The notes beneath the pieces were generated by a model. It did no database searches. It was not told where the DNA came from and saw only the letters and a list, made by a program, of their open reading frames with translations. The translations under genes were made by a program, and so were the position numbers. DNA of 60,679 bases from positions 1-60,679 of the forward strand of contig CAYSXT010000001.1 in assembly GCA_964435075.1 (NCBI GenBank). Direction: 5' to 3'. Below, piece by piece: positions 39,440-55,595 of the stretch (positions are counted from its first letter, which is position 1; the number at the start of each line of letters is the position of its first letter). This DNA is from an uncultured Candidatus Saccharibacteria bacterium. Lineage in GTDB: Bacteria; Patescibacteriota; JAUYIX01.

Positions 39440-39442
39440 GAC

Positions 39443-40708: not shown

Positions 40709-40771
40709 AGCTATCCCTATAGAATAGCCTAATTAATACCCCAAAAGCCACCAATATTTGTTTATTAAAGA

Positions 40772-42568
40772 CTAAGATTGGCCGTTCTTAAGGGCTTTAT
40801 CGCCAACTATAGCTTTAATTCTCCTGATTCCGGCAGAACTAGATTTTTCCTTCGTGATAATAAACTTCTTAATATCGCTTGTATTAGACACATGTGGTCC
40901 TCCACAAAGTTCCTTTGAGTACATTTTGCCGTTTTCTTCCACAGAACATACCTGCACCTTATCTCCATATTTTTCCTCAAAAAGTCCTAGAGCACCAAAC
41001 TTTTTTGCCTCAGCTAGGGGCATTATATTTAATTTTACGGGTAGCGCTGCCTTAATTTTTGAGTTTACTATTTCCTCTACTTTTTTCTTCTCTTCATTGG
41101 ACATTTTTTCTCCATGACGAAAATCAAAAGATAGCTCATCGTCAAAAAGTCTAGAACCAGCCTGCGTTACATGCTCACCTAAAACGTCTCTCAAAGCTTG
41201 CTGTAACAGATGAGTTGCCGTGTGAGCTTTTTTTACTTCTTCGCCCTGACCACCACCTTTGCGCTCAAATTTACTACGCGCTCCTATCCGGGAGATTTCC
41301 TGGTGTTTTTTAAGGGATTCCGTGTAACCTTTTTTATCAAAACTAATTTTTCTCTCTGCCGCCAACTCTTTAACAAGTTCTATAGGAAATCCGTAGGTCT
41401 GGAACAAATCAAACGCTGTCTTACCATTTAGAAAACCATCCGCTGTTTCTTTTTCAAATATTTTTAGACCACGAGCGAGTGTTTTTCTAAACTGACTTTC
41501 TTCTTTGTTTAGTTCTTCAATTATTTTGTTTTTATTTTCCTCTAGCTCCGGATAGAACTCCTTATATTCATTGATAACTACCAGAGCTAGTTCTCCTAAA
41601 ATTGTCTGACTATAGCCCAAGCGTTCGGCTTGTCTTATCGCTCGGCGAATGACTCTTCTTAAAATGTAGTCACGTCCGTTTTTCCCTGGGATTACTCCAT
41701 CGGCCAATAAGAATGCCGCACCACGAACATGATCAGCAATAATTCTAAATACTCTTTCATTATTGGCATACTCTTTTTTAGTAATCGTTTCAATCTTTGA
41801 CAATAAGTCCTTAAACAAATCTGTTTCAAAAATATTTTTTTTACCTTGTAAAACCATAGCAATTCGCTCCAAGCCAGCACCGGTATCAATATTTTTATTA
41901 GGCAAATCAGACAGAATACCGTCTTCAGCACAAAAATTTTGCATAAAGACTAAGTTCCACAATTCTAAAAAACGACCACAGTCACAATTAGGACCACAGT
42001 CATGACTTTTCTTAATGCTTGAAAATTCTTCTCCACGATCATAATGGAGTTCAGAACTAGGACCACAAGGACCGGATTCGCCAGGTGGGCCCCAAAAGTT
42101 ACTTTCTTTACCCAAGGCGATAATGCGATCCGGGCTAACCCCTATTTTTTTCCAAATCTTTTCAGCCTCAATATCACGTTCAACTTGATCTTCGCCAGAA
42201 AATATTGTCACCCATAATTTTTCAGGCGATATTTTAAGATTAACTGTAAAAAATTCCCAAGCCCATTTGATAGCATCCTCTTTAAAATAATCCCCTACAG
42301 AAAAATTACCCAACATCTCAAAGAATGTGTTATGCGATTCGTCGCCTACTTCATCAATATCAGGCGTACGAAAACATTTTTGACTTGATGTAAACCTGGT
42401 AACCTTTGTCGTCTTGTCCCCTAAAAAATAAGGAATAAACTGTTGCATGCCAGCCGTTGTCAGTAATACAGTCGGATCAGCACTAACCAGTGATGATGAT
42501 TTTTTTAATGTATGCCCCCTCTTAACAAAGAAATCAAGAAAGGACGAACGAATTTCACTGGATTGCAT
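40772..42568 (-). CDS. alaS: alanine--tRNA ligase, short form lacking the C-terminal (C-Ala) domain
   Basis: The start is taken at MQSSEIRSSFLDFF (ATG 42568). It has a class II catalytic core and editing-domain motifs HTATHLL and CGGPHV, and ends about 40 aa after the latter. Confidence 0.92.
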   Translation of the reverse strand: MQSSEIRSSFLDFFVKRGHTLKKSSSLVSADPTVLLTTAGMQQFIPYFLGDKTTKVTRFTSSQKCFRTPDIDEVGDESHNTFFEMLGNFSVGDYFKEDAIKWAWEFFTVNLKISPEKLWVTIFSGEDQVERDIEAEKIWKKIGVSPDRIIALGKESNFWGPPGESGPCGPSSELHYDRGEEFSSIKKSHDCGPNCDCGRFLELWNLVFMQNFCAEDGILSDLPNKNIDTGAGLERIAMVLQGKKNIFETDLFKDLLSKIETITKKEYANNERVFRIIADHVRGAAFLLADGVIPGKNGRDYILRRVIRRAIRQAERLGYSQTILGELALVVINEYKEFYPELEENKNKIIEELNKEESQFRKTLARGLKIFEKETADGFLNGKTAFDLFQTYGFPIELVKELAAERKISFDKKGYTESLKKHQEISRIGARSKFERKGGGQGEEVKKAHTATHLLQQALRDVLGEHVTQAGSRLFDDELSFDFRHGEKMSNEEKKKVEEIVNSKIKAALPVKLNIMPLAEAKKFGALGLFEEKYGDKVQVCSVEENGKMYSKELCGGPHVSNTSDIKKFIITKEKSSSAGIRRIKAIVGDKALKNGQS

Positions 42569-42578
42569 ACCACTAAAA

Positions 42579-43682
42579 CTAAGCGGCCTTAGGCAATCTT
42601 GCAAGCCGTATACCCTGCCGATTAAGTGAGGAACTTAATTGCTGCAGTTTTTTTACTGAATCATTCCCTGACGCGGCTGATTCTATTTTATTTTCCAATT
42701 GATTTAACTCTCTTAGTTGAGCCTCGTAGGATGGTAATTCACTATCGAGATTTTTTAACTCAGCCTTGAGTTTTCTTACTTGATCTGCAGCTTCTTTAAA
42801 ACCCTTTTTGTTTTCTTGTAGTTCTTGACGTTCCGCTCTGAGTTTAAACTCCAAGACAGTGCCTTGGCTGTTTAATTTTTTGAGATCACTTTTATTTTTC
42901 TTTTTATTCTCATCCCTGGCCATACTTTGGAGCGTTCTACTCTCTTGCTCAGTATTATGTAAATCTTGCTCAATTTTTCTAAGCTCCGTCTGATCTTTTT
43001 GCGCTGCCCGCCGATATACATCCGCCTCCTTCTGCAGATTTCTCATCTCTATTCTATGATTTTTTATAGTAGCTAATATTTTATCAACAGCCTGACTTAA
43101 ATTATTTTGCTTGCTATCTATATCTCTTAACACTTGATTAACTACTAGATCAATCTGTCTCGATTTTTTTGACTGCAAACGGCGATGTTTTAAAGCTTCC
43201 TCTTGTTTGGCGAGTATCTCTTTTCTCTTGTTCTCCTGCTCTTGCTTTATTTCTTCTCGACGTGCTTTTTTTTCGTTTTCATATTTTTGTTGTTTTTTCT
43301 TTAGGGCTTCTGCACGCTCTAACCTTTTTTTGTTCGCAGCTTCTCGCTCTGCTTGACGCCTAATTTCAAGTGAATTTTTTGATAAAGCTTTGGCATCTGC
43401 CAAGGCAGTCCTAGCTTCAATTTTTTGTTTTCGTGCTTGCCTGGCAACCACAGCGGCTGTAACATCTCGCCGTAATTTCAGCCCGGACTGCTTCATTGCC
43501 CTAACTTCTGCAGATTCAGCTAATACATCGTGTTGACGCTGAAAAACATCTTCACGAGTTAAAGCACCCCGCTTTTTTTTGCCCAGTTCACGCTTTTTGA
43601 GTAAAACATCACCTGCAACTTTTGCGCTTTTTTGTCTAGCTAACCTGCCGCCCTTTTTAGCTTTTGATTGTCGCGTATTCAT
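42579..43682 (-). CDS. highly charged K/R/E/Q-rich coiled-coil protein, unknown function
   Basis: 367-aa ORF that is almost entirely predicted helix, with no TM. It overlaps the mnmA 3' end by 26 nt and stops 10 nt before alaS. Confidence 0.7.
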   Translation of the reverse strand: MNTRQSKAKKGGRLARQKSAKVAGDVLLKKRELGKKKRGALTREDVFQRQHDVLAESAEVRAMKQSGLKLRRDVTAAVVARQARKQKIEARTALADAKALSKNSLEIRRQAEREAANKKRLERAEALKKKQQKYENEKKARREEIKQEQENKRKEILAKQEEALKHRRLQSKKSRQIDLVVNQVLRDIDSKQNNLSQAVDKILATIKNHRIEMRNLQKEADVYRRAAQKDQTELRKIEQDLHNTEQESRTLQSMARDENKKKNKSDLKKLNSQGTVLEFKLRAERQELQENKKGFKEAADQVRKLKAELKNLDSELPSYEAQLRELNQLENKIESAASGNDSVKKLQQLSSSLNRQGIRLARLPKAA

Positions 43683-44835
43683 TCTGGGAAGATTTTAATA
43701 CTTGTTTAGAAATATTCTTGATAATTCCTCCACCAATTACCTCCTCATTATCATACAACACTAATGATTGTCCCGTAGCCAATAGATCAATTTTAGCTTG
43801 TGGAATAGCTTGCCACCTACTACCAGACATCCTTAATTTTACCCTAAATAAAGCCTGAACATGCCTACCTCTAGCTTGATATATGTAATCCATTTTCGGC
43901 TCTGACCCCACAAAGCTTACTTGTTGCAGATCTATAATAGAGTTTGTCATATCAACTTCAGCAGGATTGTCAGTAACGACAAGCTTATTCTTTTTGACAT
44001 CCTTACTGACTACGTAGTGAGGTTTTTGGCCAAGAGCACCAAGTCCTCGTCTTTGGCCCAGAGTATAAAGTTCTGCCCCTTGGTGCTTACCCAGTTTATT
44101 TCCCTTTTTATCGGTTATGGTTCCAGATTTAGTAGTAATTTGGGTCTTTAAAAATTTTGCTACTTCACCCTTAGGAACAAAACAAACTTCCTGAGAATCA
44201 TGTTTGGAGGCTGTTGGAAGCCCCATCTTTTTGGCAAGGGCTCTTACTTCTGACTTTTGCATACCACCTAGAGGAAATAATATTTTATTCAATTCAGATT
44301 GCCCCAACCTGTAAAGAAAATAAGTCTGATCCTTTTGCCTATCATGCGCACGTAATAATTTCGCTTTTTTGTTTGGCGGAAGACAATCTATACTTTTCCA
44401 GCTATTTTGATGGTCTCTAATTGCATAATGACCAGTGGCTAAATAGTCCGCCTTGTATACATTAAGGGCCTTATTCAACATAGCCCCAAATCGTAATTTT
44501 GTATTACAAACTACGCAAGGATTTGGAGTCCTACCTGCTTTGTACTCCTCAATAAAATAATCGACTACTAATTTCTTAAAATCTTTAGATATGTCAGACC
44601 TAAAAAGCGGAATACCTAATTTCTTAGCAACTTTTTGCGCGTCTTGATACGCCTCGAGTGAACAACAGTTATTTTCCCAGGCCTTTCCTAATTTAGGTTC
44701 TGGCGACCAGAGTTCATAAAAAACACCCGAACAATCATAGCCCTGCTTACTTAACAGGGCAGCTGCTACAGAACTATCTACCCCGCCAGACATAGCGATT
44801 AATACTCTAGGACTGTTTTTTCGTTTACTAGACAT
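43657..44835 (-). CDS. mnmA: tRNA 2-thiouridine(34) synthase MnmA
   Basis: 392 aa with the PP-loop AMSGGVDSS and a conserved catalytic Cys context (NPCVVCN). Confidence 0.93.
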   Translation of the reverse strand: MSSKRKNSPRVLIAMSGGVDSSVAAALLSKQGYDCSGVFYELWSPEPKLGKAWENNCCSLEAYQDAQKVAKKLGIPLFRSDISKDFKKLVVDYFIEEYKAGRTPNPCVVCNTKLRFGAMLNKALNVYKADYLATGHYAIRDHQNSWKSIDCLPPNKKAKLLRAHDRQKDQTYFLYRLGQSELNKILFPLGGMQKSEVRALAKKMGLPTASKHDSQEVCFVPKGEVAKFLKTQITTKSGTITDKKGNKLGKHQGAELYTLGQRRGLGALGQKPHYVVSKDVKKNKLVVTDNPAEVDMTNSIIDLQQVSFVGSEPKMDYIYQARGRHVQALFRVKLRMSGSRWQAIPQAKIDLLATGQSLVLYDNEEVIGGGIIKNISKQVLKSSQNEYATIKS

Positions 44836-44851
44836 CCGGAAAATTCTACTG

Positions 44852-44857
44852 ATTATA
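44852..44857 (-). promoter_or_regulatory. consensus -10 box upstream of mnmA
   Basis: The minus strand reads TATAAT 16 nt before the mnmA ATG. The -35 region is poor (it falls in the ATPase stop region). Confidence 0.3.
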
Positions 44858-44866
44858 GCGGCTTAG

Positions 44867-46756
44867 TCAATCTTCAAAAGAAACTGCCTGGCCCTCTTTT
44901 AGTTGTCGTTTACCTCGTTTATTTGACTTTTTTTCAGTCTTTTTATCCGTTTTTTTACCAGTCATTGCTTTTTTTATTGGACTAAGTGCCTCTTTGAGAG
45001 AGACAGTTTTAGGTGTTGGAATTACGACCGGCTCTCCACCAGAGGCCTTAACGGTAACTTTATCGCGCTGATTGCTCCTATCTCTCGGTCGTCTATTCGG
45101 TCGTCTATCCCTATTTTGACTTACTCTGCGATCCTGATTGTTTAAATTAGTATTTTTTCTATCATTTCTAGAATCACGATTTCTCTGCGCTTCGGGTAAG
45201 CATTCTCGACAATAAACTGGACGCATTGGATCTGGCTTAAATGGAACTTCAACAACCTTGTTGCAGGTGTGACAAATTGCATTAAACATTTCACGATCAT
45301 CTGGCCGTCTGTTCTGACTCCCGCCGCTACGTCCACCTCGCTCTCGATTACCTCGGTTATCATGATTATCAGATCGGCCTCCACCCTTCCGTCTATCAAT
45401 TTTTTGTTTCATTCGATCTTCTGCGCTACGAGGACCACGATTATCATTATCCGAAGATCCTGACCAGCGTTTGATTTTATCTTCTACTTCCTCGCGACCC
45501 CTTGCATATCTCTCCCTAGAAACTGCAATGACTTTGTCTCGAGCACTGGTTCTAAACTCGTCAAAGCGTGGGATTGTAACAGCAGAAAAACCTTGACTCG
45601 TTAGTCCATCAATCATCATCTTCAAATAGATATTGTACGCTGGAATATTAACTAGATCTGTCTGCATAAATACAGGTTCAAATTCTTTTTCTAAAAATTC
45701 AGCATCCTGAGCACCAACTCTAAATGCCACCAATGAGCCTACGTTACCAAAGACCGCCTCTCTAACTTCATCACTCATTTGCTCTATATATTGGTGAGCA
45801 ACCGTTAAATTGAGGCGATATTTTCGTGCCTCTGACAAAATAGTAGCGAATGACTCTGTTGCAAAGTTTTGAAACTCATCAACGTAAAGATAAAAGTCGT
45901 TCCTCTCTTCTTCTGGAATGTTCGCTCTAGACATAGCTGCTAGTTGAATCTTAGTAATCATCATAGAGCCAAGCAGTGCGGTATTGTCCTCACCAATTTT
46001 TCCTTTTGAAAGACTCATTATCAAAATCTTGTTGTTGTCCATCACATCTCTAAGATCAAAACTGGATTTAACCTGTCCCACAATATTTCTCACAATTGCC
46101 GAAGACAAGAACTGACCCACTTTATTTTGGATAGGCGAGATCGCCTCAGAGGCAAATCTTTCATTGTAGTTGGCAAACTCATCGACCCAAAAACTTTTAA
46201 CGACCGGGTCTTCAACATTTCTAACAACCTCATTGCGATATTTTTTATCGGCTAATAGTCGCAATATCCCCAACATTGTAGCTTCTGGATAGTCCAACAA
46301 AGCCAGAATTGTATTACGTAGAATATACTCCAAACGGGGCCCCCATGATTCGGCGTACATCTTTTTAAAGACACCCACTAGACCCGAGGCAATTAAATAC
46401 TTGTGCTCATGTTCTACTTTTTCAAAAACATTGAAGCCAATCGGAAAATCTATATCTGCCGGATTAAAATATATGACGTCATTGACCCTGTGGGGCGGTA
46501 TAAAATCTAAAATGTCTTCGGCAACATCACCGTGAGGATCAACTATACAGAGTCCCCTACCAGCATTAATATCTCCAATAATCATGTTTTGCAGCATGGT
46601 CGTCTTACCCATACCAGTTTTTCCAATTACGTAGACATGATTGCGACGATCTTTTTGTTTTATGCCAAATAATTTTTCCTCACCTCTAAAAGTTGTTTTA
46701 GCAAAAACCGTAACGTCATCTGGTAATTTTGGTTGTTCTTTCTCTGGAATATCCAT
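44867..46756 (-). CDS. VirD4/TrwB/TraG-like (FtsK-HerA superfamily) P-loop ATPase with R/G/D/N-rich tail and CxxC-x17-CxxC zinc ribbon
   Basis: 629 aa with Walker A GKTGMGKT (nt 46601..46624), DPHGD, Walker B FYLYVDEFQNF and SEARKYRLNLTVAHQ. It has no TM. It is a paralogue of the C-terminal half of 964..3405. Confidence 0.88.
   Translation of the reverse strand: MDIPEKEQPKLPDDVTVFAKTTFRGEEKLFGIKQKDRRNHVYVIGKTGMGKTTMLQNMIIGDINAGRGLCIVDPHGDVAEDILDFIPPHRVNDVIYFNPADIDFPIGFNVFEKVEHEHKYLIASGLVGVFKKMYAESWGPRLEYILRNTILALLDYPEATMLGILRLLADKKYRNEVVRNVEDPVVKSFWVDEFANYNERFASEAISPIQNKVGQFLSSAIVRNIVGQVKSSFDLRDVMDNNKILIMSLSKGKIGEDNTALLGSMMITKIQLAAMSRANIPEEERNDFYLYVDEFQNFATESFATILSEARKYRLNLTVAHQYIEQMSDEVREAVFGNVGSLVAFRVGAQDAEFLEKEFEPVFMQTDLVNIPAYNIYLKMMIDGLTSQGFSAVTIPRFDEFRTSARDKVIAVSRERYARGREEVEDKIKRWSGSSDNDNRGPRSAEDRMKQKIDRRKGGGRSDNHDNRGNRERGGRSGGSQNRRPDDREMFNAICHTCNKVVEVPFKPDPMRPVYCRECLPEAQRNRDSRNDRKNTNLNNQDRRVSQNRDRRPNRRPRDRSNQRDKVTVKASGGEPVVIPTPKTVSLKEALSPIKKAMTGKKTDKKTEKKSNKRGKRQLKEGQAVSFED
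45200..45274 (-). other. CxxC-x17-CxxC zinc-ribbon motif inside the ATPase tail
   Basis: aa 495-519 read CHTCNKVVEVPFKPDPMRPVYCREC. The motif is flanked on both sides by R/D/N/G low-complexity sequence (GGGRSDNHDNRGNRERGGRSGGSQNRR; RNRDSRNDRK...RRPNRRPRDRSNQRDK). Confidence 0.8.
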
Positions 46757-46757
46757 G

Positions 46758-48038
46758 TTAGAGATTAGGTACCTCAGTTAATGGTAAATTAGTTGGAGCA
46801 CTGCCCTTCTTGGCCATTGTTCTCTCCAGGCGCGGCGTCTTAACCGTAATATCCGGAATATGAAATAGCGAAGCTAAAGATTCTGTTGTAAGAATTTGCG
46901 GAGCAGGGCCCTTTGTAAAGGATCTCGTCTTATATGCTTTGAGTAACAGATTCTTTCTAACTCTTACACGTGGCTTTTTGAAAAAATAATCCACCCTCGT
47001 AAATGTATTCTTATACGGTTTAAAACCATTCATGTCATAGGTGTTAAAGAGCTTATATGAACCCATAATGGCCTTGAAGCGATTTTTATCAAAAGTCTCA
47101 GCGTTACCCAGGTACATTAACCGGCCTTTAAACTGAAAAGCTAACTTAGAAACATTTCTTTCTATATTTTCAACGACCTTACGCTCATTTGGCGGTATCA
47201 AAAACATACTGGTTGGAAATTCTTCTGAGGCCCCTTCACCACCACCGGCTCCAGCCAGCGTGCCGGCAAATTCACCGGCCTTTGACAAAGCTTCTAATAC
47301 GACTGGGTTTGGCTTGGGGACATCTTGCCCCATCAACTCCTTAGCAAATTTTTGGCCTTCCATAGCCCAATCGGTCATGACTGGACGAATAACAAACTGA
47401 ACCCACAGTTGCTCATCGGGATTAAGCTTGTTCATTACTTCTGCAGCAGTTGCAATTGGGTCAATTATTCTTTGAGTCATCTGATGCTCAAAGTTTGGAT
47501 AGGTCCGGATCGGATAAAAATCTTTATTTACCAAAACCATGTCAGCACCAAATAAATCTAGGCCGGCTTTTTCAAAATCAGCGGGAAATTTTTCGGCGTA
47601 ATCATCCACTTGCTTAATTTCAACATCAGGAAATTGAGCATATAGATGAGCCTCAACGGCATCCTTAAAGTAATCAGGACAGCGCACAATAAAATGTACG
47701 TCTCCGCCCAAGCCCACAATCTCAATTGAGTACCACTCTTGTATCTTACCTTTCCAAAAACGATCTAAAAAATTGGGATTAGTTTGGACAGAGTGCAAAG
47801 CGTTAAAAAATTCCTCCATAACTTTTGGACTTTGCTCATTTTCGGGAGGAACACTAATTTCCAAATTAATAAAATTTATACTCTTAACAAATTGAGTCAC
47901 CATGTAGTCTTTCCAATACCATGCCATCATGTAGAACAAGACGATTGGAACAAATATAAACCAACCCTCCCGCCAAACGGAATTAAAAACAGCAAAAGAG
48001 TTTTGAAACCCTTGTCCTACGCTATCTAAAATCTCCAT
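46758..48038 (-). CDS. membrane-tethered protein homologous to the N-terminal unknown domain of 964..3405
   Basis: 426 aa with one N-terminal TM (GWFIFVPIVLFYMMAWYW). Blocks align with the fusion protein: YSIEIVGLGGDVHFIVRCPDYFKDAVEAHLYAQFP vs ITFEIAAINDEILFYVGVPEPIADLVEKQLHAVYS; YPIRTY vs WPIRTY; LFHIPD vs FMHFPD. Its stop lies 1 nt before the ATPase ATG. Confidence 0.8.
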   Translation of the reverse strand: MEILDSVGQGFQNSFAVFNSVWREGWFIFVPIVLFYMMAWYWKDYMVTQFVKSINFINLEISVPPENEQSPKVMEEFFNALHSVQTNPNFLDRFWKGKIQEWYSIEIVGLGGDVHFIVRCPDYFKDAVEAHLYAQFPDVEIKQVDDYAEKFPADFEKAGLDLFGADMVLVNKDFYPIRTYPNFEHQMTQRIIDPIATAAEVMNKLNPDEQLWVQFVIRPVMTDWAMEGQKFAKELMGQDVPKPNPVVLEALSKAGEFAGTLAGAGGGEGASEEFPTSMFLIPPNERKVVENIERNVSKLAFQFKGRLMYLGNAETFDKNRFKAIMGSYKLFNTYDMNGFKPYKNTFTRVDYFFKKPRVRVRKNLLLKAYKTRSFTKGPAPQILTTESLASLFHIPDITVKTPRLERTMAKKGSAPTNLPLTEVPNL

Positions 48039-48057
48039 GTCGGGAAGTAAATTATAG

Positions 48058-49194
48058 TTATTCCTTAATTGCTAAATCGTAATCTTCGCGACCAACCTTT
48101 TTAAATTTGACCTTATCCTGCAAACCAATAAGAACTGTATTTCTCTTAACCATACGTCTTTTTAAGACCTCTTGGAGTAAATCGTTGCGGTTCATGGGCC
48201 CGCCTTGTTGCTGCAAAATTTCAGTAAGAACATCAGCAACGGTACCTGGCTTATATCCCCATTCACTTAAGGCATACATTCCACGACCAACTAATACAAA
48301 GCGCTTGTCTTTAATCAGCTCATTGTGAACTGTTTGCGGATATGCTTTTCTCTTGTCAAATTTGGCAGCGTTAATAGCCTCTGTAATTTTCATAAAGTGC
48401 ATTGGCTTGTTTGTACGTCGCACAACCATGTAAGCCTTGTCTCTGACACCCTTAGGTACAATATCCGTCCAATCGACAAGTCCAAACTCACCAAATGGAT
48501 TTTTGGCTATGTTTTTTGAGGCAGCCATAGCAGCTTGAATTTCAGCCTCAGTCGCAACTGACTGACCTTCTTTTCCTTGGTGCTCGTTTATAGCCAAGAC
48601 TAATTTTTCTAAATTCATAGGCTTGCCGCTCTCCTTAAAAATACCCTCTATCGTTTTTAGTAAATTAGATAGTTTTTCGAATGATGGCTTATTTGAAACC
48701 CAGATAGTCTTTAATCGATCACTTTCATCTATTTTTTGGACCTCATCTGCCAGATTAAAAATAAATAGTAATGCAGCCCTGTTGGTAGGATTATTATTTT
48801 CAGAACCAAGAATGCGAGTAAGCAGGGCTTCCTGTTCCATAACTCCACCCGCATCAGTTAAAGTGGCGTGAACCACTTTAGTGGCTCTTCCAATTTCGCG
48901 GGATCGCGCGCTCTTTTTGAGCTCCTTTATCGCTAGGGATTGTATTTGTCGTACACGCTCTCTGGTAATACCGTATTGCTTCCCTAAACTCTCAAGAGTT
49001 TTTGACTTGGTTCCATCCAGGCCAAAACGTTTCATTAAAATATTTTTTGCTCGGCTATCTGTATCATTTAGTAGATCCAACACAAAACGATGGGGCTCAA
49101 AAGCCTGTAAATCTAGTTCTTTTTGAGAACTTAAGACCTCATCGAGGATTGCTCGCTGGTCTGTATTTTCCTTGGTGTCGTTTGTGTTAGTCAT
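48058..49194 (-). CDS. DNA-binding protein with sigma-70 region-4 HTH and C-terminal HARE-HTH-like winged-helix modules
   Basis: RFGLDGTKSKTLESLGKQYGITRERVRQIQSLAIKELKK is region-4-like, and no region 2 is present. The C-terminal FVLVGRGMYALSEWGY and GEFGLVDW resemble the HARE-HTH signature. The start is set at MTNTND (ATG 49194) because promoter-like elements occupy 49205..49279. Confidence 0.78.
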   Translation of the reverse strand: MTNTNDTKENTDQRAILDEVLSSQKELDLQAFEPHRFVLDLLNDTDSRAKNILMKRFGLDGTKSKTLESLGKQYGITRERVRQIQSLAIKELKKSARSREIGRATKVVHATLTDAGGVMEQEALLTRILGSENNNPTNRAALLFIFNLADEVQKIDESDRLKTIWVSNKPSFEKLSNLLKTIEGIFKESGKPMNLEKLVLAINEHQGKEGQSVATEAEIQAAMAASKNIAKNPFGEFGLVDWTDIVPKGVRDKAYMVVRRTNKPMHFMKITEAINAAKFDKRKAYPQTVHNELIKDKRFVLVGRGMYALSEWGYKPGTVADVLTEILQQQGGPMNRNDLLQEVLKRRMVKRNTVLIGLQDKVKFKKVGREDYDLAIKE

Positions 49195-49204
49195 AATTGC
49201 TAGG

Positions 49205-49233
49205 GTTATACCATGCCTTAATAAATAAGTCAA
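49205..49233 (-). promoter_or_regulatory. proximal promoter of the sigma4/HARE-HTH - membrane domain - ATPase unit
   Basis: The minus strand reads TTGACT (49233..49228), 17 nt, TATAAC (49210..49205), then 10 nt to the ATG at 49194. Confidence 0.5.
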
Positions 49234-49250
49234 GACTTTGTTATGAGCCC

Positions 49251-49279
49251 AAAATATCACTTACTTTACAAACTGTCAA
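49251..49279 (-). promoter_or_regulatory. distal promoter of the same unit
   Basis: The minus strand reads TTGACA (49279..49274), 17 nt, TATTTT (49256..49251). Confidence 0.4.
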
Positions 49280-49303
49280 CAAGCTGGCTTAAACCTATTT
49301 TAA

Positions 49304-50230
49304 CTAGTTTGTTGCTCTTTTTCTCTGACGTCTTTCGCGAAATCTATTCCAATCAATAAGTAATGGACTGGCAATGAAAATGCTAGAAAAAGTACCAATT
49401 AGCAGACCAGCCATAAGAGCCAACACAAAATCTTGTAAGGATCTCCCTCCAAATGCGAGCAAAGCCGTTAATGGGATTAGAGTAGTTAAACTTGTATTAA
49501 TTGATCTAGTTATTGTTTGGTTAGTTGCTAATGTCACCGCTTTTTCAAACTTATCGCCGCCCATCTCAAGCAAATTGGCTCGGGTTCGATCAAAAACAAC
49601 GATCGTATCGTGAACTGAATAGCCCAGAGTTGTGAGAACAGCAATCACAAAAAGCGAATCTATCTCCGCTCCCCTCAAATAACTGAGAATTGCAAAAACA
49701 CCAAGTAGTATCGTGACGTCATGCGTAACAGCAACAATAGCTAGAACCCCATACTTCCAAGATTGTATTGGCTGAGAGACTTTTCGAAAAGCGTAGGTCA
49801 GATATAAAATGATCGCAGCCAAAACTAAGAGTACTGCCCAGATCGCTTTTTGCCTTAGCTCCTGACCAATTGTTGGACCAATCGATTCAAACCTTTCTTC
49901 TTCTACGGCGCCATAATTATCCGACAAAGTATCAAGAATATTTTGTCGAGTTGCATTATCTACATTTTGATAGCGAAGCAATATGCTTTGGTCGCCAATC
50001 GGTTGTACTGAAGAAATATCAGCTAGCTCAGCTAAGGAATCTGCAACTGCGTCATTAGCAGGTCGCTCTTGTTCGAATTTGATTTCATGGAGGGTTCCCC
50101 CTACGAAATCAATTCCTAAACTAAGACCTTGCGTAAATAGAACTACAAGCGTCGCCACGATTAGCGTAATTGATATTCCGTACCAAACCTTACGGAGCTT
50201 AACTATTGGTAGTGGTTTACGCTGTTTCAT
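49304..50230 (-). CDS. secF: protein translocase subunit SecF
   Basis: 308 aa with SecF topology and motifs (GIDFVGGT, VHDTIVVFDR). Confidence 0.93.
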   Translation of the reverse strand: MKQRKPLPIVKLRKVWYGISITLIVATLVVLFTQGLSLGIDFVGGTLHEIKFEQERPANDAVADSLAELADISSVQPIGDQSILLRYQNVDNATRQNILDTLSDNYGAVEEERFESIGPTIGQELRQKAIWAVLLVLAAIILYLTYAFRKVSQPIQSWKYGVLAIVAVTHDVTILLGVFAILSYLRGAEIDSLFVIAVLTTLGYSVHDTIVVFDRTRANLLEMGGDKFEKAVTLATNQTITRSINTSLTTLIPLTALLAFGGRSLQDFVLALMAGLLIGTFSSIFIASPLLIDWNRFRERRQRKRATN

Positions 50231-51624
50231 TATATTGACCCTCCTGCTTCTTTTGTTTTAAGAGGCTCTTCTTTTTTCTTCTTTACACCCAATAACCAGC
50301 TGGCTTGTAATAATCTAAAGCCGAGCAACCATCTCAGGAGCGTTCTTGAGACCGTTATTGCCGAGAAAAGAGAAACAACTACTCCAATACCCAGGGTCAG
50401 AGCAAAGCCTCGCACTAAGCTCGTTGTGAAGGTATACATAATAACTACGGAGATGATGGAACTTAAATTTGAGTCTCTAATAGAAGGCCAAGCCATCTTA
50501 AAACCATCTTCTACAGCTGCCACTGGAGACAAATCATCCCGCAGAGCTTCCTTAATTCTCTCAAAAATAAGAACGTTAGCATCTACAGCAATACCAATAG
50601 ACAAATAGAGACCAGCTAGGCCAGGTAATGTAAGAGTTACAGAGAATAGCTTAAAGATAACAACCACTACGGCGGTATAAATAAATAAGGCAATCACTGC
50701 GACCAGTCCCAAGAGGCGGTAATAAACCAACATAAATAAGATAACTCCTACTAAACCAATTAAACCGGCAAGCAAGCTGAGTTGTACCGACTCATTACCT
50801 AGCGAAGCACCAATATTAGCCTGACTAATCAGTGATATTGGCACAGGCAATGCACCGGCGTTTAAGTTCTTTTTTAATTCCCGAGCTTCTTCAATTGTAA
50901 AATCTCCGGTAATTGTAGCTTGTCCTGAGGTTATTTTTTGCTGCACAACGGGAGCTGATAATATTTCATTGTCTAAGTAAATTGCTACCTGACTACCGAT
51001 GTTCCTTTCTGTTATCTCTCCAAAAAGTTTTTTTCCCTCACTATTAAAAGAAAGTAAAATTGTGGGCTGACCGGTTTGTCCAAAATCAATATCGGCTCTC
51101 TCAAACTGAGCACCAGTTAAACCAGTAGGAACAAATTCCGGACCAGTAGCAGCTACATCAATCGACTGGGTTCCATCTTCATTTGTAATAACTTCAGGAT
51201 TCGAAGTTTCTGTTTTATCACCTTCAGACTCATTGCTTAACTCCCTAAACTCTAAGAACGGAGTTTTTCCTATTTCAGCGACAGCATCATTGATATCCGT
51301 AACGCCGGGTAGCTCTACTAAGAGACGGCTCTCACCTTGAACTTGAATTACAGGCTCAGAAACACCAAAAGAGTTAACACGTCGCTCTATAACGTCCCTT
51401 ACTCCATTTATCGACTCTTCTTTTTCATCGGAGCGTATTTGGCTTAGATCAGCCTCATAAATCAACTGGCTTCCACCTTGTAAGTCTAATCCCAATCTAA
51501 AAACTAATGAATTAATAGAATCCACAGGAATTTTGCCCGGGCCATTTGGAGTTGCAAGATAAGCTGCTGCCGTAGCAACAACTGCAATGCCTAATAATGA
51601 TAACCATACTCTTGCTCGAGTCAT
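50230..51624 (-). CDS. secD: protein translocase subunit SecD
   Basis: 464 aa with LGLDLQGG, a periplasmic-type domain and a C-terminal 6-TM region (AVDANVLIFERI). Confidence 0.93.
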   Translation of the reverse strand: MTRARVWLSLLGIAVVATAAAYLATPNGPGKIPVDSINSLVFRLGLDLQGGSQLIYEADLSQIRSDEKEESINGVRDVIERRVNSFGVSEPVIQVQGESRLLVELPGVTDINDAVAEIGKTPFLEFRELSNESEGDKTETSNPEVITNEDGTQSIDVAATGPEFVPTGLTGAQFERADIDFGQTGQPTILLSFNSEGKKLFGEITERNIGSQVAIYLDNEILSAPVVQQKITSGQATITGDFTIEEARELKKNLNAGALPVPISLISQANIGASLGNESVQLSLLAGLIGLVGVILFMLVYYRLLGLVAVIALFIYTAVVVVIFKLFSVTLTLPGLAGLYLSIGIAVDANVLIFERIKEALRDDLSPVAAVEDGFKMAWPSIRDSNLSSIISVVIMYTFTTSLVRGFALTLGIGVVVSLFSAITVSRTLLRWLLGFRLLQASWLLGVKKKKEEPLKTKEAGGSI

Positions 51625-51649
51625 GCCAGATAGTCTATCACAACTTTTT

Positions 51650-52957
51650 TTAGGGAACTCGGTTTTTTGATATTAGATCCGGCAAATCGGCAGTCGTCAA
51701 GGCTTCAGCCTCGAGTCCCTGCATGGGCTTATTGAAAAGCATAAACGTGACAGCTTGTTTTCGATTTAAGCCACCGTGAACTGCAAATCTAGTGAGCAAA
51801 TTAAAACCCTTACCGGGCGCACTTGTTATAAGTAGATCTCCGCTTGATGGTGCTTTTAAAAGTTCGTAAACTTGGAAAAGACTATCTGGATAATTAGTCG
51901 AACCTGAAATTGTAATACACTTTTGCCGATCGGAACCCTCAGCAAGTTGATCTTTATTTTGAGGATTAACAATACCTAAAGGATCTGTTCCTTTCTCAAG
52001 CTTGTAGCAATATTTAGATTCATTTTTAGTTATCACACCAACACCCTTTTTAGATTGAACAACGGCACGCATCTCAGCGCCTTGACCTCGCCTATAGATT
52101 GTCAGATCTACTGCATCACGCTCAGCCAACGTGCCCGGTAAAGCCCCCAAAAAACTCTCATCAAGCCGCTCCTTGTATGTGCCATCTTTTTTAAAATATA
52201 TCTGACCAAAACCACCACCATCTAGAAACAAGCGGTTGGAAGTCAGCCCATAGCCCAGCTTGCGCAGTTCATTTTTTAAAGAAAAGGGCACACCGTCAGT
52301 TCTTTCCATGCCATGATCAGAACATAAAACTATGGTTGTATTATCATCCATCTCCTTCTCAAACTTCAATAGATACCTATCTAAATCAATTAGAGATTTT
52401 TCTACTTTTTGTTTGTTGGGCGACAAATGAGCTAAAGCGTCGGTTTCATGTAGCCAACCGATAATCAGATCCCTGCCTGCACGATACTCATATAAGACTG
52501 TGCGCATTACATACCAGTTGGCTGGTCCCCTAATTTTGGCCCAGTCTGCCAGAGCAAAAATATTTTTTCGATATGTTGTTGCACCGACTCTAAAGGGCTC
52601 ACTTATAGAAACCGAATTATCAAACTGGTGATAGAGAGTTTTGCGATCGCCGTACTTTTTTGAGAAAAGATTATACGACAGCAAGTAGTTCTCAAGTTTA
52701 CCATTCGACCGATGAAACTGATTATGACCGACGAAATCTATTGATGCGGGATTTATTCCAGAAAAAAGTGGAATGTGACCAGGACCTGTAACCGTCGGAA
52801 AAGAGGCAACCACATTGTCATGATAAGCCCCCTGTTTAACATACCTCTGCAAGGTGGGCAGATTGCCTTGATTTAATAACTCATTAAAGGTCTCAGCTGA
52901 TATTCCATCAACCAAGAAGACTACATATCGTTCTAAGTTTGGTTTGATCCGTGGCAC
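51650..52957 (-). CDS. alkaline-phosphatase-superfamily enzyme (nucleotide pyrophosphatase/phosphodiesterase-like)
   Basis: 435 aa with metal and nucleophile motifs VFLVDGIS, FPTVTGPGH, CSDHGM and HGG. No signal peptide is visible. Confidence 0.8.
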   Translation of the reverse strand: MPRIKPNLERYVVFLVDGISAETFNELLNQGNLPTLQRYVKQGAYHDNVVASFPTVTGPGHIPLFSGINPASIDFVGHNQFHRSNGKLENYLLSYNLFSKKYGDRKTLYHQFDNSVSISEPFRVGATTYRKNIFALADWAKIRGPANWYVMRTVLYEYRAGRDLIIGWLHETDALAHLSPNKQKVEKSLIDLDRYLLKFEKEMDDNTTIVLCSDHGMERTDGVPFSLKNELRKLGYGLTSNRLFLDGGGFGQIYFKKDGTYKERLDESFLGALPGTLAERDAVDLTIYRRGQGAEMRAVVQSKKGVGVITKNESKYCYKLEKGTDPLGIVNPQNKDQLAEGSDRQKCITISGSTNYPDSLFQVYELLKAPSSGDLLITSAPGKGFNLLTRFAVHGGLNRKQAVTFMLFNKPMQGLEAEALTTADLPDLISKNRVP

Positions 52958-55560
52958 TTTTTATATTTCTTTCCAGAACCACAATAACACGGATCATTGC
53001 GTCCTGGTTCCTTTTTAGTTTTTTGTGGTCTTGAACTTACCGCCCCTTCGCCTTGGCTTTGTAACTTTTCTGCTCCAGCAGTCGGGGCCGCTTGTTGGGT
53101 TGCAATATTGGACTTAAAAATACGATATACAATGCCATTTTGAATGTTATCCAACAGACGCTCAAACAACCCAAATCCATCTTTTTTATATTCGACTAAT
53201 GGATCGTGTTGACCATAACTTCTTAGGCGCACTGATTCTCTTAAGGCCTCCATTGTATCCAGATGATCAACCCAAAGTGTGTCAATAGTCATCAAATAAA
53301 CACCAATCTCTACTCTGCGCATGACTTCCACAGTCAACTCTTGTTCTCTAGCCTCATAAGTCTTTTTAGCAGTGTCGATCAATAGACCTATTACAGCATC
53401 ACGAGCCGCTGCATCCTGCTTGGGATTTCCACCCTTTGACCGGGCCTCTTCAATTTTATCAGCCAGATCATTTGGTACAGGCATCAACGTCTGCATAGTT
53501 TCAACGATTTCCTTAATGTCCCAACGTTGCTCCTTTTCTCCTAAAGTATGAGCCGCAACTACTTGCTCAATTTCCGCATTAATTAAATCCTCAATACGCG
53601 CTTTGAGAGTTTCGCCTTTTACATCCTCACCGGCTAATCTTTTTTTCTCTAATGACCAAATGTCTAATAACTCACGTCTTTTCCCATATATAACCTCACG
53701 CTGTTTATTCAAGACATCATCAAACTCGACTAAGTGCTTTCTAATATCAAAATTATTACCTTCGACCTTTTTTTGTGCTGATTCCAGCGATCTGCTAATT
53801 ACTTTGTTCTCAATTGCCTGATCTTCAGATAGGCCCAATTTCTCCATCATGGATTTCATCCGATCGGATCCAAAGATCCTCATGAGGTCGTCCTCCATAG
53901 ACACAAAGAACTGAGTAGAACCTGCATCTCCCTGTCGACCTGATCGTCCACGCAGCTGATTATCAATACGTCTGGATTCATGTCGTTCAGTACCAATTAC
54001 ATGCAAGCCTCCAATCTCTGCAACCCCTTCACCTAGCTTAATATCTGTTCCCCGACCAGCCATATTTGTAGAAATAGTCACATTACCTTTTTGCCCAGCT
54101 TTAGAAACTATCTGGGCCTCACGCTCATGATTTTTAGCGTTGAGAACCTCATGTGTAATGCCCTCACGCTTAAGATAGGCCGACAACCGCTCAGACTTAT
54201 CAACCGAAACCGTACCAACCAGCACAGGCTGACCTTTAACATTTCTATTTTTTATGTCTGCGACAACTGCTTTAAATTTACCTAATTCGCTTTTATAGAT
54301 CTTGTCTCCAAGATCAAGGCGGGCGGTTGGTTTATTTGTTGGAATTACAACAACATCAAGTTCGTATATTTTTGCAAACTCTTCAGCCTCAGTAGCTGCT
54401 GTACCAGTCATTCCCGAGAGCTTATCGTAAAGCCTAAAATAATTTTGAAAAGTAATAGTCGCTAGGGTTCTCGATTCTCTCTGAACTTTTACACCTTCTT
54501 TTGCTTCGATGGCTTGATGTAACCCTTCCGAGTAGCGACGTCCGGGCATTAAACGACCCGTAAATTCATCAACAATGATTACCTCATTATCCTTAATGAC
54601 ATAATCACGGTCCTTAACAAACAAAGCTTTGGCTCTAACCGCCGATTCCACGTGAGTGACCATGCGTATACCAGCCTCTTCATAAAGATTATCGATCCCC
54701 AGTTTCTTCTCGACCTTACTAATACCTTCTTCACTGAGCGTTACAGCTTTTAGTTTTTCGTCCAGATTATAGTCGACGTTTTCTTTTAAGTCTTGGGCCA
54801 GCTTTGCCATCTGATAGTACTGATCTGTAGAATCTTGAGCAGGTGCCGAAATAATCAATGGGGTTCTTGCTTCATCAATTAAAATGGAGTCTACCTCGTC
54901 GACAATACCAAAAGGTTGTCCCCGCTGCGTCAGTTGATCGTCGTCATGAACCATATTGTCGCGTAAATAATCAAACCCAAACTCATTATTAGTTCCATAT
55001 GTAATATCTGCCTGATAGGCCTCCCGCTTATCCGCTGGAGTTTGACCATGCTGGGTAACACCAACTGACAGACCTAAAAAGTTATAGACACCACCCATCC
55101 ATTCTGCATCTCTCTGAGCTAGATAATCGTTAACCGTAATTACATGAACGCCTTTACCATTCAGGGCATTTAGGTAGGCAGGCAATACGGCAACAAGGGT
55201 TTTACCTTCACCGGTACGCATTTCAGCTATGCGCCCCTGATGTAAAACAATGCCTCCAATAATCTGCACATCAAAGGGAACCATGTTCCATTTTGTTTCC
55301 TCTCCGCGCACTTCCCACGAGCGACCTTGCAGGCGTCGCATGGCATCCACTACAACAGCAAATGCGTCTGGCAATAATTCGTCTAAGGTTTTTGTCTTGT
55401 CGGCAATGAGTTTCTTAAACTCAAATGTTTTGTTTTTAAGTTCCTCGTCGCTCAGAGATTCTAATGATTTGGCTTTAGCACGAACATCCTGCACGATCGG
55501 CTCGAGCTTTTTAATAACCTTTACGTTTGGATCACCCAAAATTTTCGTAAACAATCCCAT
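52933..55560 (-). CDS. secA: preprotein translocase ATPase SecA
   Basis: 875 aa with a DEAD-like motor (MRTGEGKTL, DEVDSILIDEARTPLIIS) and a C-terminal zinc site CYCGSGKKYKKCHG. Confidence 0.97.
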   Translation of the reverse strand: MGLFTKILGDPNVKVIKKLEPIVQDVRAKAKSLESLSDEELKNKTFEFKKLIADKTKTLDELLPDAFAVVVDAMRRLQGRSWEVRGEETKWNMVPFDVQIIGGIVLHQGRIAEMRTGEGKTLVAVLPAYLNALNGKGVHVITVNDYLAQRDAEWMGGVYNFLGLSVGVTQHGQTPADKREAYQADITYGTNNEFGFDYLRDNMVHDDDQLTQRGQPFGIVDEVDSILIDEARTPLIISAPAQDSTDQYYQMAKLAQDLKENVDYNLDEKLKAVTLSEEGISKVEKKLGIDNLYEEAGIRMVTHVESAVRAKALFVKDRDYVIKDNEVIIVDEFTGRLMPGRRYSEGLHQAIEAKEGVKVQRESRTLATITFQNYFRLYDKLSGMTGTAATEAEEFAKIYELDVVVIPTNKPTARLDLGDKIYKSELGKFKAVVADIKNRNVKGQPVLVGTVSVDKSERLSAYLKREGITHEVLNAKNHEREAQIVSKAGQKGNVTISTNMAGRGTDIKLGEGVAEIGGLHVIGTERHESRRIDNQLRGRSGRQGDAGSTQFFVSMEDDLMRIFGSDRMKSMMEKLGLSEDQAIENKVISRSLESAQKKVEGNNFDIRKHLVEFDDVLNKQREVIYGKRRELLDIWSLEKKRLAGEDVKGETLKARIEDLINAEIEQVVAAHTLGEKEQRWDIKEIVETMQTLMPVPNDLADKIEEARSKGGNPKQDAAARDAVIGLLIDTAKKTYEAREQELTVEVMRRVEIGVYLMTIDTLWVDHLDTMEALRESVRLRSYGQHDPLVEYKKDGFGLFERLLDNIQNGIVYRIFKSNIATQQAAPTAGAEKLQSQGEGAVSSRPQKTKKEPGRNDPCYCGSGKKYKKCHGSNQT

Positions 55561-55566
55561 TAGTTT

Positions 55567-55595
55567 TTGTTAGCAATAAACACCTAGACTGCCAA
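55567..55595 (-). promoter_or_regulatory. possible secA promoter
   Basis: The minus strand reads TTGGCA, 17 nt, TAACAA, then 6 nt to the ATG at 55560. Confidence 0.35.

Follow-up and report, generated by a model that had tools for sequence, protein, structure and literature searches.

A conserved three-gene module of Patescibacteria linking a DUF8128 membrane protein and a coupling protein-type ATPase to a sigma4/HARE-HTH protein

The DNA analyzed here is the whole of contig CAYSXT010000001.1 from the Patescibacteria metagenome-assembled genome (MAG) GCA_964435075.1, a stretch of 60.7 kb (60,679 nucleotides, hereafter the window), and the system in question, locus B, is a set of three tightly packed genes on its minus strand that encode a DNA-binding protein (gene 1), a membrane protein of the Pfam family DUF8128 (gene 2), and an ATPase of the type IV coupling protein (T4CP) kind (gene 3). 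These three genes are a real linked module that is conserved over many classes of Patescibacteria, and the system belongs to the VirB4/VirD4-family ATPase systems. Genes 2 and 3 together represent the two-chain form of a Patescibacteria-wide DUF8128 plus T4CP-type ATPase, the one-chain form of which (Locus A) is encoded elsewhere in the same window. The interpretation that we favor, and to which we give about even weight, is that locus B encodes a membrane-tethered T4CP-type motor acting on DNA or nucleoprotein independently of a type IV secretion system (T4SS).

A check of the open reading frames (ORFs) recovered all three genes on the strand and at the coordinates given in the original prediction, which had been made from the sequence alone, with the same gaps of 19 nt between genes 1 and 2 and 1 nt between genes 2 and 3 (Table 1). 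The domains it had assigned (Sigma70_r4 and HARE-HTH in gene 1, a T4CP-type ATPase and a zinc ribbon in gene 3) were likewise present in profile searches. Linkage was then assessed in 80 fetched loci from species-level Patescibacteria genomes of many classes, where gene 1 lies directly upstream of gene 2 in 73 of the 80 and gene 3 directly downstream of gene 2 in 76, so that the three genes do co-occur and stay adjacent in relatives. The median spacing between genes 1 and 2 is approximately 40 nt across these loci. The gene secF, accompanied by secD, precedes gene 1 in 48 of the 61 loci with room for it, and the complete order secD-secF-gene 1-gene 2-gene 3 on one strand is found in Andersen-, Azam-, Kerfeld-, Buchanan-, Morani-, Uhr-, Doudna-, Yanofsky- and Spechtbacteria as well as in a Microgenomates-named MAG (Ca. 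Microgenomatus). Median identity in the same loci is highest for the gene 3 core (64%), followed by SecD (52%), SecF (47%), MnmA (38%), gene 1 (37%) and gene 2 (36%).

Gene 3 scores above the Pfam cut-offs for TrwB_AAD_bind, T4SS-DNA_transf, DUF87 and TraG-D_C. The first of these reaches 41.9 bits against a cut-off of 20.5 over residues 34–330, which corresponds to an all-alpha domain inserted in the nucleotide-binding domain, and the best match among PDB sequences is TrwB (5.7e-6). As the Walker A and Walker B motifs are both intact and the core is so well conserved between loci, the sequence points to an active enzyme under strong constraint. A search for transmembrane or hydrophobic segments in gene 3 found none. 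The 199-residue C-terminal tail is rich in charged and polar residues (R 16%, K 11%, N 9%, D 9%, G 8%) and contains a treble-clef zinc ribbon, CHTC-x17-CREC, recognized by both zf_Tbcl_2 (47.7 bits, 1.2e-12) and TIGR04272 (48.7 bits, 4.4e-13). Orthologous tails have a median length of 162 residues and are also charged and of low complexity, and the zinc ribbon occurs in 30 of the 70 that are complete, which makes it a recurrent but optional element. The original description of a 629-residue VirD4/TrwB/TraG-like ATPase with no transmembrane segment and a CxxC-x17-CxxC motif is borne out. An identity as FtsK/SpoIIIE orthologue was considered and rejected: the FtsK_SpoIIIE profile gives 19.1 bits against a cut-off of 24, covers the P-loop only (residues 32–60), and there is no transmembrane segment, in agreement with the earlier expectation that gene 3 is not the ordinary FtsK/SpoIIIE of this genome.

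Gene 2 is identical to a public protein (P0001) that, together with nearly all of its 95 homologues, carries a precomputed assignment to PF26449, i.e., DUF8128. Our own Pfam and NCBIfam library scans of gene 2 returned no match, the Pfam version scanned being one that lacks the PF26449 model, and a literature search found no paper mentioning PF26449 or DUF8128. At least 552 relatives were found in a scan of one genome per species, essentially all of them in Patescibacteria. The single aromatic-rich hydrophobic helix lies at the N-terminus (residues 25–42) with no further hydrophobic segment after it; in 36 family members the best N-terminal 18-mer has a median Kyte-Doolittle value of 1.87, and none lies beyond residue 90. 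The DUF8128 domain is probably cytoplasmic, since lysine and arginine are more frequent after the helix than before it in the family (2.1 vs. 0.6) and the fused paralogue runs in the order transmembrane helix, KKK, DUF8128, ATPase.

The AlphaFold2 (AF2) model of gene 2 (pLDDT 80, pTM 0.75) starts with a long N-terminal helix, after which comes an alpha/beta domain that contains one disordered loop. When this model was compared to the PDB with Foldseek, 13 matches were obtained at E ≤ 0.001, all of them TrwK/VirB4 chains of the R388 T4SS (E 2e-5 to 5e-4, probability 1.0, query TM-score approximately 0.36); rank 14 (E 7.9e-3) is again taken by a TrwK chain, and the match after it, at E 0.025, is unrelated. 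With moderate confidence, then, the modeled domain resembles the N-terminal domain of VirB4/TrwK at the level of fold only. The gene 2 family profile gave no match to PDB sequences even at E 10, the 36 DUF8128 members searched against Pfam at E 10 hit no VirB4 or TrsD family, and in hhalign comparisons with R388 TrwK both the gene 2 family and the fused family aligned at the P-loop only. Since all of these sequence bridges failed, it is the Foldseek comparison that carries the link between DUF8128 and VirB4. Of the original account of gene 2, the 426-residue length and single transmembrane helix stand, whereas the "unknown fold" gives way to this VirB4-like model.

That genes 2 and 3 belong to one machine, as originally proposed, is supported by the fused paralogue at Locus A. 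Its residues 74–379 correspond to gene 2 (E 7e-20) and residues 377–804 to gene 3 (44% identity, E 4e-120), and its transmembrane helix is followed by KKK and then by the cytoplasmic ATPase chain. The fused family has 2,539 matches at approximately 47% identity, with the DUF8128 and T4CP domains in a single chain, and is phylum-wide. The C-terminal motif of gene 2, '...AKKG.AP.NLP', read on into the N-terminus of gene 3, resembles the fused consensus '...AK.APAP.N.P.EG..LG.N.YRG', and so the point at which the two genes are split is the inter-domain linker of the fused form. In the 76 loci with gene 3 next to gene 2, the projected start of gene 3 lies at a median of −8 nt from the stop of gene 2, and within 50 nt of it in 63. 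No single-ORF fusion of genes 2 and 3 was seen within the split clade in these 76 loci, and the ATPases of split and fused type form two clean clades, with 69/69 and 41/41 sequences nearer to their own type. Sequence comparison thus indicates that Locus A is an ancient fused paralogue and that the duplication is older than the classes sampled.

The AF2 model of Locus A (pLDDT 85.5) finds full-length TrwK/VirB4 as its best Foldseek alignment (E approximately 1e-15, approximately 900 columns), with a global TM-score of approximately 0.3 and a root mean square deviation (rmsd) of 15 Å, meaning that the domains match while their orientation differs. Its ATPase half superposes on TrwB (target TM-score 0.61, rmsd approximately 5.5 Å, 424 columns) and on Cagbeta (target TM-score 0.54–0.56). 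Because the full-length model aligns with TrwK and the ATPase half with TrwB and Cagbeta, the architecture as modeled is a VirB4-like layout with a VirD4-like motor.

Several other features of the two DUF8128 contexts were recorded. Locus A is flanked at window positions 225..929 and 3412..3900. Downstream of the fused paralogue lies a protein of approximately 200–240 residues with no Pfam match that is conserved across genomes at 42–57% identity (L081, 11188–11919; L083, 11177–11782), and upstream of it a small charged ORF (119–162 residues) with no detectable similarity; both of the other genomes have dnaX 1.5–3 kb downstream, and two of the three have corA and cysS in the vicinity. A third DUF8128 context is an orphan gene (432–438 residues) in loci L046 (7361–9206) and L074 (893–2911), which is adjoined by neither an ATPase gene nor gene 1 nor secDF. 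Both orphans are preceded by homologous membrane proteins of approximately 165 residues, and the orphan in L046 is directly downstream of three ORFs that look like PilB, PilT and PilC by size and order alone.

Set beside the canonical T4CPs (VirD4, TrwB, TraD, Cagbeta), gene 3 is alike in its P-loop motor and all-alpha domain, its Pfam T4CP profiles and its top PDB match to TrwB, and although the superposition on TrwB and Cagbeta concerns the model of the 44%-identical Locus A paralogue and not gene 3 itself, it agrees with this placement. T4CPs carry an N-terminal two-helix transmembrane domain in cis, however, whereas gene 3 has none and would be anchored by a separate DUF8128 protein with a single helix. 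T4CPs also sit among relaxase and T4SS genes, while locus B has no such gene among the 33 window ORFs that were scanned with profiles; it is instead chromosomal, near-universal in the phylum with approximately two copies per genome, and very highly conserved. The proposed likeness to VirB4 (TrwK of R388) lies in the two-part layout, an N-terminal domain of approximately 400 residues followed by an FtsK/HerA-type ATPase, and in the structural matches described above, which are to VirB4 chains only at E ≤ 0.001 for gene 2 and to full-length TrwK for the fused paralogue. It differs in having no N-terminal sequence similarity, in TM-scores of only approximately 0.3–0.38, and in the lack of VirB3, VirB6 or VirB8 genes nearby. 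The ATPase half scores as T4CP and not as VirB4, since neither gene 2, gene 3, Locus A nor any of the 36 DUF8128 members matches CagE_TrbE_VirB, AAA_10 or P-loop_TraG.

The DUF8128 plus T4CP architecture is not specific to Patescibacteria, as full-length relatives are detected by sequence comparison in phages of Bacillales. The PHROG family phrog_5156, of unknown function, matches Locus A (E 5.9e-81, residues 87–805 against profile positions 67–806 of 824), gene 3 (E 2.1e-64) and gene 2 (E 1.5e-8). A tblastn search gave 76 phage records, nearly all from Bacillales phages and including phage G gp156, SPO1 gp27.4, TP-84 gp48 and D6E, with a best E of 6e-34; hhalign of the gene 2 family against gp27.4 gave E 2.5e-5 over 312 columns, and the gene 2 model matched phage G gp156, JL and Slash in BFVD with query TM-scores of 0.53–0.55. 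The annotation of phage G gp156 and of the D6E protein as 'MsbA-like' looks like a misannotation.

We inspected three phage loci, those of SPO1 (L085, 86188–102131), TP-84 (L086) and phage G (L087, 85952–98057). The neighbors of gp27.4 in SPO1 are an Alp7A-type actin (gp27.9) on one side and a Replic_Relax protein (gp27.3) on the other, while in phage G gp156 adjoins an HNH endonuclease and the ATPase gp155, which is VirB4-like by sequence (P-loop_TraG, AAA_10 and a weak CagE_TrbE_VirB trace) and also matches the gene 2 fold. The phage cluster has been proposed to be a DNA translocation operon, comprising an HTH-bearing relaxase, a coupling ATPase without a transmembrane domain, and membrane anchors, and deletion of this operon from 0305phi8-36 caused no growth defect in the laboratory (Pathria et al., 2012; PMC3357382). 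The phage coupling ATPases (SPO1 gp27.4, 0305phi8-36 orf201, phage G gp156, TP-84 gp48) are homologous over their full length, with a DUF8128-like region and an ATPase, and their operon also encodes an HTH-bearing partner and separate membrane or anchor partners nearby. The identity to the Patescibacteria proteins is only approximately 22%, however, and the phage protein is reported to have no transmembrane helix (PMC3357382). The partners differ as well: in the phages these are a Replic_Relax/MobC-like nickase and an actin-like protein, whereas in Patescibacteria the partner is the unrelated sigma4/HARE-HTH protein, with no nuclease.

Taken as a mechanism, gene 2 would supply a single N-terminal membrane helix and a cytoplasmic platform like the VirB4 N-terminal domain, and gene 3 a TrwB/VirD4-like motor of the FtsK/HerA superfamily with a disordered, basic tail that often bears a zinc ribbon. 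The two genes abut and are probably translationally coupled, and we infer that their products most likely assemble as a membrane-tethered ring motor on the cytoplasmic face. DNA seems the likely substrate because of the T4CP ancestry, the DNA-handling neighbors of the phage relatives, and the four HTH modules of gene 1, which would be co-transcribed as a DNA-recognition partner and probably works with the motor. FtsK/SpoIIIE and Streptomyces TraB are membrane-anchored ring ATPases of the same superfamily with a winged-helix DNA-recognition module (FtsK gamma; the C-terminal winged HTH of TraB). By analogy the logic of locus B may be similar, except that FtsK/SpoIIIE and TraB hold their recognition module and four to five transmembrane helices in cis, while in locus B the recognition module is a separate protein and a single helix is provided in trans.

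Gene 1 was correctly described from the outset as a 378-residue protein with only sigma-70 region 4 and HARE-HTH domains, as Pfam, NCBIfam and the public gene call P0216 all agree. Its ORF extends upstream to a GTG (48058..49260, 400 residues), but the sequence evidence places the start at ATG 49194, since orthologue alignments begin there and P0216 is 378 residues long at 100% identity. Pfam detects Sigma70_r4 (1.7e-9) and HARE-HTH (1.7e-14, in three stretches), and the family, of more than 7,986 members, carries PF04545 and PF05066 throughout. The region 4 HTH matches the C-terminal profiles of both RpoD and RpoS, and in its motif TLE.IG..YGITRERVRQIE the residues R, E, R, R and Q are invariant in the family alignment. 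The most conserved part of the family is the HARE-HTH at residues 252–312, which scores 51 bits against a cut-off of 42 for TIGR04567 (RNA polymerase delta). Pfam and NCBIfam show no sigma region 2 in gene 1, only region 4, and all sigma-factor equivalog scores are far below their cut-offs; with neither region 2 nor region 3, gene 1 is ruled out as a sigma factor. An identity as relaxase analogue was rejected too, as hhalign of the gene 1 family against SPO1 gp27.3 gave no similarity.

The protein is thus alike to sigma-70 in its primary-sigma-like region 4.2 with the RERxRQIE motif and to the RNA polymerase delta subunit (RpoE) in its delta-type HARE-HTH. RpoE has one N-terminal HARE-HTH and an acidic disordered C-terminal region, whereas gene 1 begins with a sigma4 domain, contains three HARE-type repeats and lacks an acidic tail, and it differs from both proteins in its fixed position upstream of a T4CP-type ATPase. 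Members of the family are named 'RNA polymerase delta subunit' by JGI, and the member in S. epibionticum ML1, SEML1_0294, is annotated 'RNA polymerase sigma factor RpoS' by PROKKA. Judged by domain content, both names are likely misannotations of an essential, Patescibacteria-enriched family that has only sigma region 4 and HARE-HTH. To judge from the Tn-seq contrast described next, gene 1 also has an essential function apart from the motor, and its sigma region 4.2 and delta-type HARE-HTH point to RNA polymerase or the nucleoid as the probable site of that function.

The essentiality of this family comes from transposon-insertion sequencing (Tn-seq) of S. epibionticum (Wang et al., 2023; PMC10633639), in which SEML1_0294 (Sigma70_r4 and HARE-HTH, 349 residues) was scored essential throughout (ES/ES/ES), with insertions going from 24 in the input to 1, 1 and 2 at T0, T1 and T2. 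The T4CP-like gene directly downstream, SEML1_0293 (921 residues), was non-essential (NE/NE/NE; 82 to 87, 120 and 110), with normalised reads going from 5,817 to 2,940 to 1,372 over passages. A second T4CP-like paralogue, SEML1_0142 (1,019 residues), was essential (ES/ES/ES; 114 to 11, 11 and 9), and the small ORF upstream of it, SEML1_0141, which corresponds to the small upstream ORF of Locus A, was scored as growth defect and then essential (GD/ES/ES; 9 to 0, 0 and 0). SEML1_0142, SEML1_0293 and SEML1_0294 were all flagged as core, Patescibacteria-enriched families (PMC10633639). We infer the orthology of these genes to the two paralogues of the window from context only. The pairing of a gene 1-type with a T4CP-like gene recurs in a distant class, Saccharimonadia.

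These data bear on whether locus B is one unit or two. Gene 1 could be an essential RNA polymerase-associated factor of the delta/sigma4 kind that is merely co-transcribed with secDF, with genes 2 and 3 forming an independent accessory system. Such an arrangement would account for the essential SEML1_0294 next to the dispensable SEML1_0293, for the two RNA polymerase-related modules of gene 1 and the JGI name given to its relatives, and for loci L062 and L080, where genes 2 and 3 are present and gene 1 is not. Because of the Tn-seq contrast gene 1 cannot exist only to serve the motor, and its adjacency could reflect co-expression instead of physical cooperation; the original suggestion of a regulator or targeting factor should accordingly be widened, as the HTH protein probably does more than assist the motor. 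Adjacency in 73 of 80 loci of many classes, and again in Saccharimonadia, is nevertheless of a depth that usually reflects physical or functional coupling, and the spacing between genes 1 and 2 is short, so we regard complete separation as somewhat unlikely.

Turning to T4SSs, Quinonero-Coronel et al. (2025; PMC12102498) counted 5,713 VirD4-type T4CP homologues in 2,918 of 3,035 Patescibacteria genomes (96%), approximately two per genome, and VirB4 in 2,417 (80%); only 148 of the 5,713 lie near virB4, and the authors suggested exaptation. As an alternative, the module might be a dispersed coupling protein of the Patescibacteria T4SS, in which genes 2 and 3 or the fused paralogue dock on the VirB3/VirB4/VirB6 platform through the VirB4-like N-terminal domain and feed substrates into the channel. 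The motor is indeed of T4CP type, the N-terminal domain resembles that of VirB4, which contacts VirB3 and VirB8 in R388, T4CP genes are often encoded away from virB4 (PMC12102498), and phage G has a VirB4-like gene beside its DUF8128-T4CP gene. Furthermore, the T4SS of S. epibionticum is essential and its cluster has no recognisable coupling protein (PMC10633639). That same essential T4SS, however, contrasts with the dispensability of SEML1_0293; T4CP homologues are commoner than VirB4 and almost never near it; the sequence conservation is far above what is usual for coupling proteins; and the conserved neighbors are secDF and the sigma4/HARE protein, not T4SS genes. We consider a T4SS coupling role unlikely. 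Since T4CP homologues outnumber VirB4 by genome, and so rarely lie near virB4, and since no T4SS genes occur among the 33 scanned ORFs of this window, independence from a T4SS seems the better description, and the published counts agree with the earlier expectation that relatives do not adjoin T4SS genes.

The secDF linkage raises a further explanation, in which the motor would serve protein export or membrane biogenesis together with SecDF, in the manner of the FtsK-like EssC in type VII secretion or of T4CPs recruiting protein effectors. Protein secretion is indeed powered by FtsK/HerA-superfamily ATPases elsewhere, secF is immediately before gene 1 in most loci, and secA is close by in the window. 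But no channel, substrate or chaperone genes accompany the module, its phage relatives occur in DNA-handling contexts, gene 1 is a multi-HTH DNA binder, and the pair SEML1_0294 and SEML1_0293 is not beside secDF in S. epibionticum, all of which make this explanation improbable.

The setting of the module is chromosomal and housekeeping-like. One flank holds secA, a phosphodiesterase, secD and secF, the other mnmA, a coiled-coil protein and alaS, and the core genes of the window further include an ftsA-like gene, murB/C/G, ftsW, PBP2, mreB, rpoA, murA, dnaB, recR and several aminoacyl-tRNA synthetases. GC content is flat at approximately 0.40 along the window, with no composition anomaly. The 33 profile-scanned ORFs contain no T4SS, relaxase or integrase domain, and hence no MobC/Replic_Relax-type relaxase beside the module; no tRNA and no Rfam family was found in the window, and no repeats at the locus. 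As the flanks and the rest of the window consist of core genes without anomalous composition, the module is not an integrative and conjugative element (ICE), just as the original prediction had it. That the module is left over from a mobile element (ICE or prophage), or is an anti-phage defense system, is very improbable. The PADLOC matches (mad8, 8e-17, and HerA to gene 3; MzaA to gene 1 via sigma4) are generic ATPase and sigma4 similarities, and they and the PHROG match have to be set against a syntenic core-gene position across the phylum, conservation above SecD, and the uniform GC with no integrase, relaxase, repeats or tRNA; with PADLOC matches so generic and a housekeeping context, a defense or phage origin was rejected.

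The membrane-tethered, T4SS-independent motor remains our preferred interpretation, and a number of observations weigh against it. In S. epibionticum the gene 1-type gene is essential and the adjacent T4CP-like gene is not, and a core housekeeping role sits uneasily with a motor that is near-universal and more conserved than SecD but can be lost in culture. In our interpretation the motor is under very strong purifying selection and conditionally dispensable. A role in DNA handling accounts neither for the conserved secDF linkage nor for the contrast between how extremely gene 3 is conserved and how readily its closest tested relative is dispensed with. No nuclease or relaxase accompanies the module, and gene 1 is unrelated to the relaxase-like protein of the phage operon. 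The connection to the VirB4 N-terminal domain is at fold level only, with TM-scores of 0.3–0.38 and no profile signal against PDB sequences, Pfam or TrwK. The substrate, oligomer and partners of the motor are predictions from sequence.

Upstream of gene 1, the 109-nt spacer between secF and gene 1 holds both of the promoter-like strings that had been called good candidates. The strings themselves are there, but promoter-like matches in the region do not exceed chance, with 9 observed against 11.6 expected in shuffles, and the sequence only makes it plausible, without statistical support, that the two are promoters. The scanner used requires a T at position 6 of the second hexamer, and the TTGACT-17-TATAAC site was therefore not listed by it.

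A few neighboring genes without Pfam match deserve mention. A 594-residue protein is encoded near the module at 37655..39439 (minus strand), and a 367-residue K/E/Q-rich coiled-coil protein at 42579..43682 (minus strand), directly downstream of mnmA and overlapping its end; the latter has a weak relative at the equivalent position in locus L004 (25% identity, E 4e-15). A 375-residue ORF without Pfam match lies at 16436..17563 (minus strand), while a 467-residue ORF at 31878..33281 is on the plus strand amid a long minus-strand run, its sole Pfam match being a sub-threshold beta-propeller. From approximately 9.7 kb to the end of the contig the minus strand carries nearly all genes. GC skew stays negative over the whole of 10000..60679 (cumulative −3.9) and is positive only at 4–10 kb, where the plus-strand genes sit, so that the contig probably lies within one replichore with a strong gene-strand bias.

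Table 1. Positions in the window of the genes of locus B, the fused paralogue, and the motifs and sites discussed in the text.
Feature	Window position	Strand	Basis
Gene 1, DNA-binding protein, 378 aa, sigma-70 region 4.2 then three HARE-HTH-type winged helices	48058..49194	minus	Pfam, NCBIfam
Sigma-70 region 4 HTH of gene 1, aa 46-94 of the 378-aa protein	48913..49059	minus	Pfam Sigma70_r4 at 68-116 of the 400-aa ORF
Best-scoring HARE-HTH winged helix of gene 1, aa 252-312	48259..48441	minus	Pfam HARE-HTH 1.7e-14; TIGR04567
Gene 2, 426 aa, DUF8128 (PF26449), one N-terminal transmembrane helix and a cytoplasmic domain of ~380 aa with predicted VirB4-N-terminal-domain-like fold	46758..48038	minus	Homologue search, AF2 model, Foldseek
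Probable transmembrane helix of gene 2, aa 25-42, GWFIFVPIVLFYMMAWYW, N-out/C-in	47913..47966	minus	Hydropathy
Gene 3, soluble T4CP-type (VirD4/TrwB/TraD-like) P-loop ATPase, 629 aa, low-complexity tail	44867..46756	minus	Pfam, NCBIfam
Walker A of gene 3, GKTGMGKT, aa 45-52	46601..46624	minus	Invariant in fused family alignment
Walker B of gene 3, FYLYVDE, aa 288-294	45875..45895	minus	Motif reading and fused family alignment
CxxC-x17-CxxC treble-clef zinc ribbon of gene 3, aa 495-519, within the disordered charged C-terminal tail (aa 431-629)	45200..45274	minus	zf_Tbcl_2, TIGR04272
Locus A, fused paralogue, 813 aa, one transmembrane helix, DUF8128 and T4CP-type ATPase in one chain	964..3405	minus	Sequence comparison, AF2 model
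Promoter-like site TTGACA-17-TATTTT, with TG extension, in the secF-gene 1 spacer	49251..49279	minus	Consensus match only
Promoter-like site TTGACT-17-TATAAC, 9 nt upstream of ATG 49194	49204..49232	minus	Read from sequence

With regard to novelty, the T4CP counts, the Pfam family DUF8128 and the Tn-seq data were already public. The description of the module as "undescribed" consequently needs narrowing, as orphan T4CPs had been counted and flagged as possibly exapted, gene 2 falls in DUF8128, and a relative had been covered by Tn-seq. We found no earlier description of the operon of three genes or its link to secDF, of the paralogy between split and fused forms, of the VirB4-like fold proposed for DUF8128, or of the connection with the phage family. 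The original prediction stands as an observation and, in part, as an interpretation.

A large part of bacterial diversity belongs to the Patescibacteria, and for most of the conserved genes enriched in this lineage no function is known. The present analysis makes concrete the puzzle of approximately two orphan T4CP homologues per genome that are unlinked to T4SSs, by resolving them into split and fused forms with fixed partners: the split form goes with secDF and the sigma4/HARE-HTH protein, the fused form with small conserved ORFs. It provides a structural hypothesis for DUF8128, and it ties the module to tractable phage relatives (SPO1 gp27.4) and to Tn-seq in a relative that can be cultivated and that requires both the HTH partner and the second paralogue, so that targeted experiments become possible. 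More tentatively, and with rather less confidence than we have in the motor itself, the family may represent a phylum-wide, T4SS-independent and membrane-tethered DNA translocase that combines a VirB4-like N-terminal domain with a VirD4-like motor, exists as two ancient paralogues of which one is wired to an essential sigma4/delta-like DNA binder, and stands as an evolutionary intermediate between the T4SS signature ATPases that is shared with Bacillales phages. If so, its task would be a DNA transaction at the membrane that is specific to this lineage, e.g., chromosome or nucleoid handling, or DNA import or export, and, should the VirB4-like N-terminal domain prove true, the family would bear on how VirB4 and VirD4 diverged.

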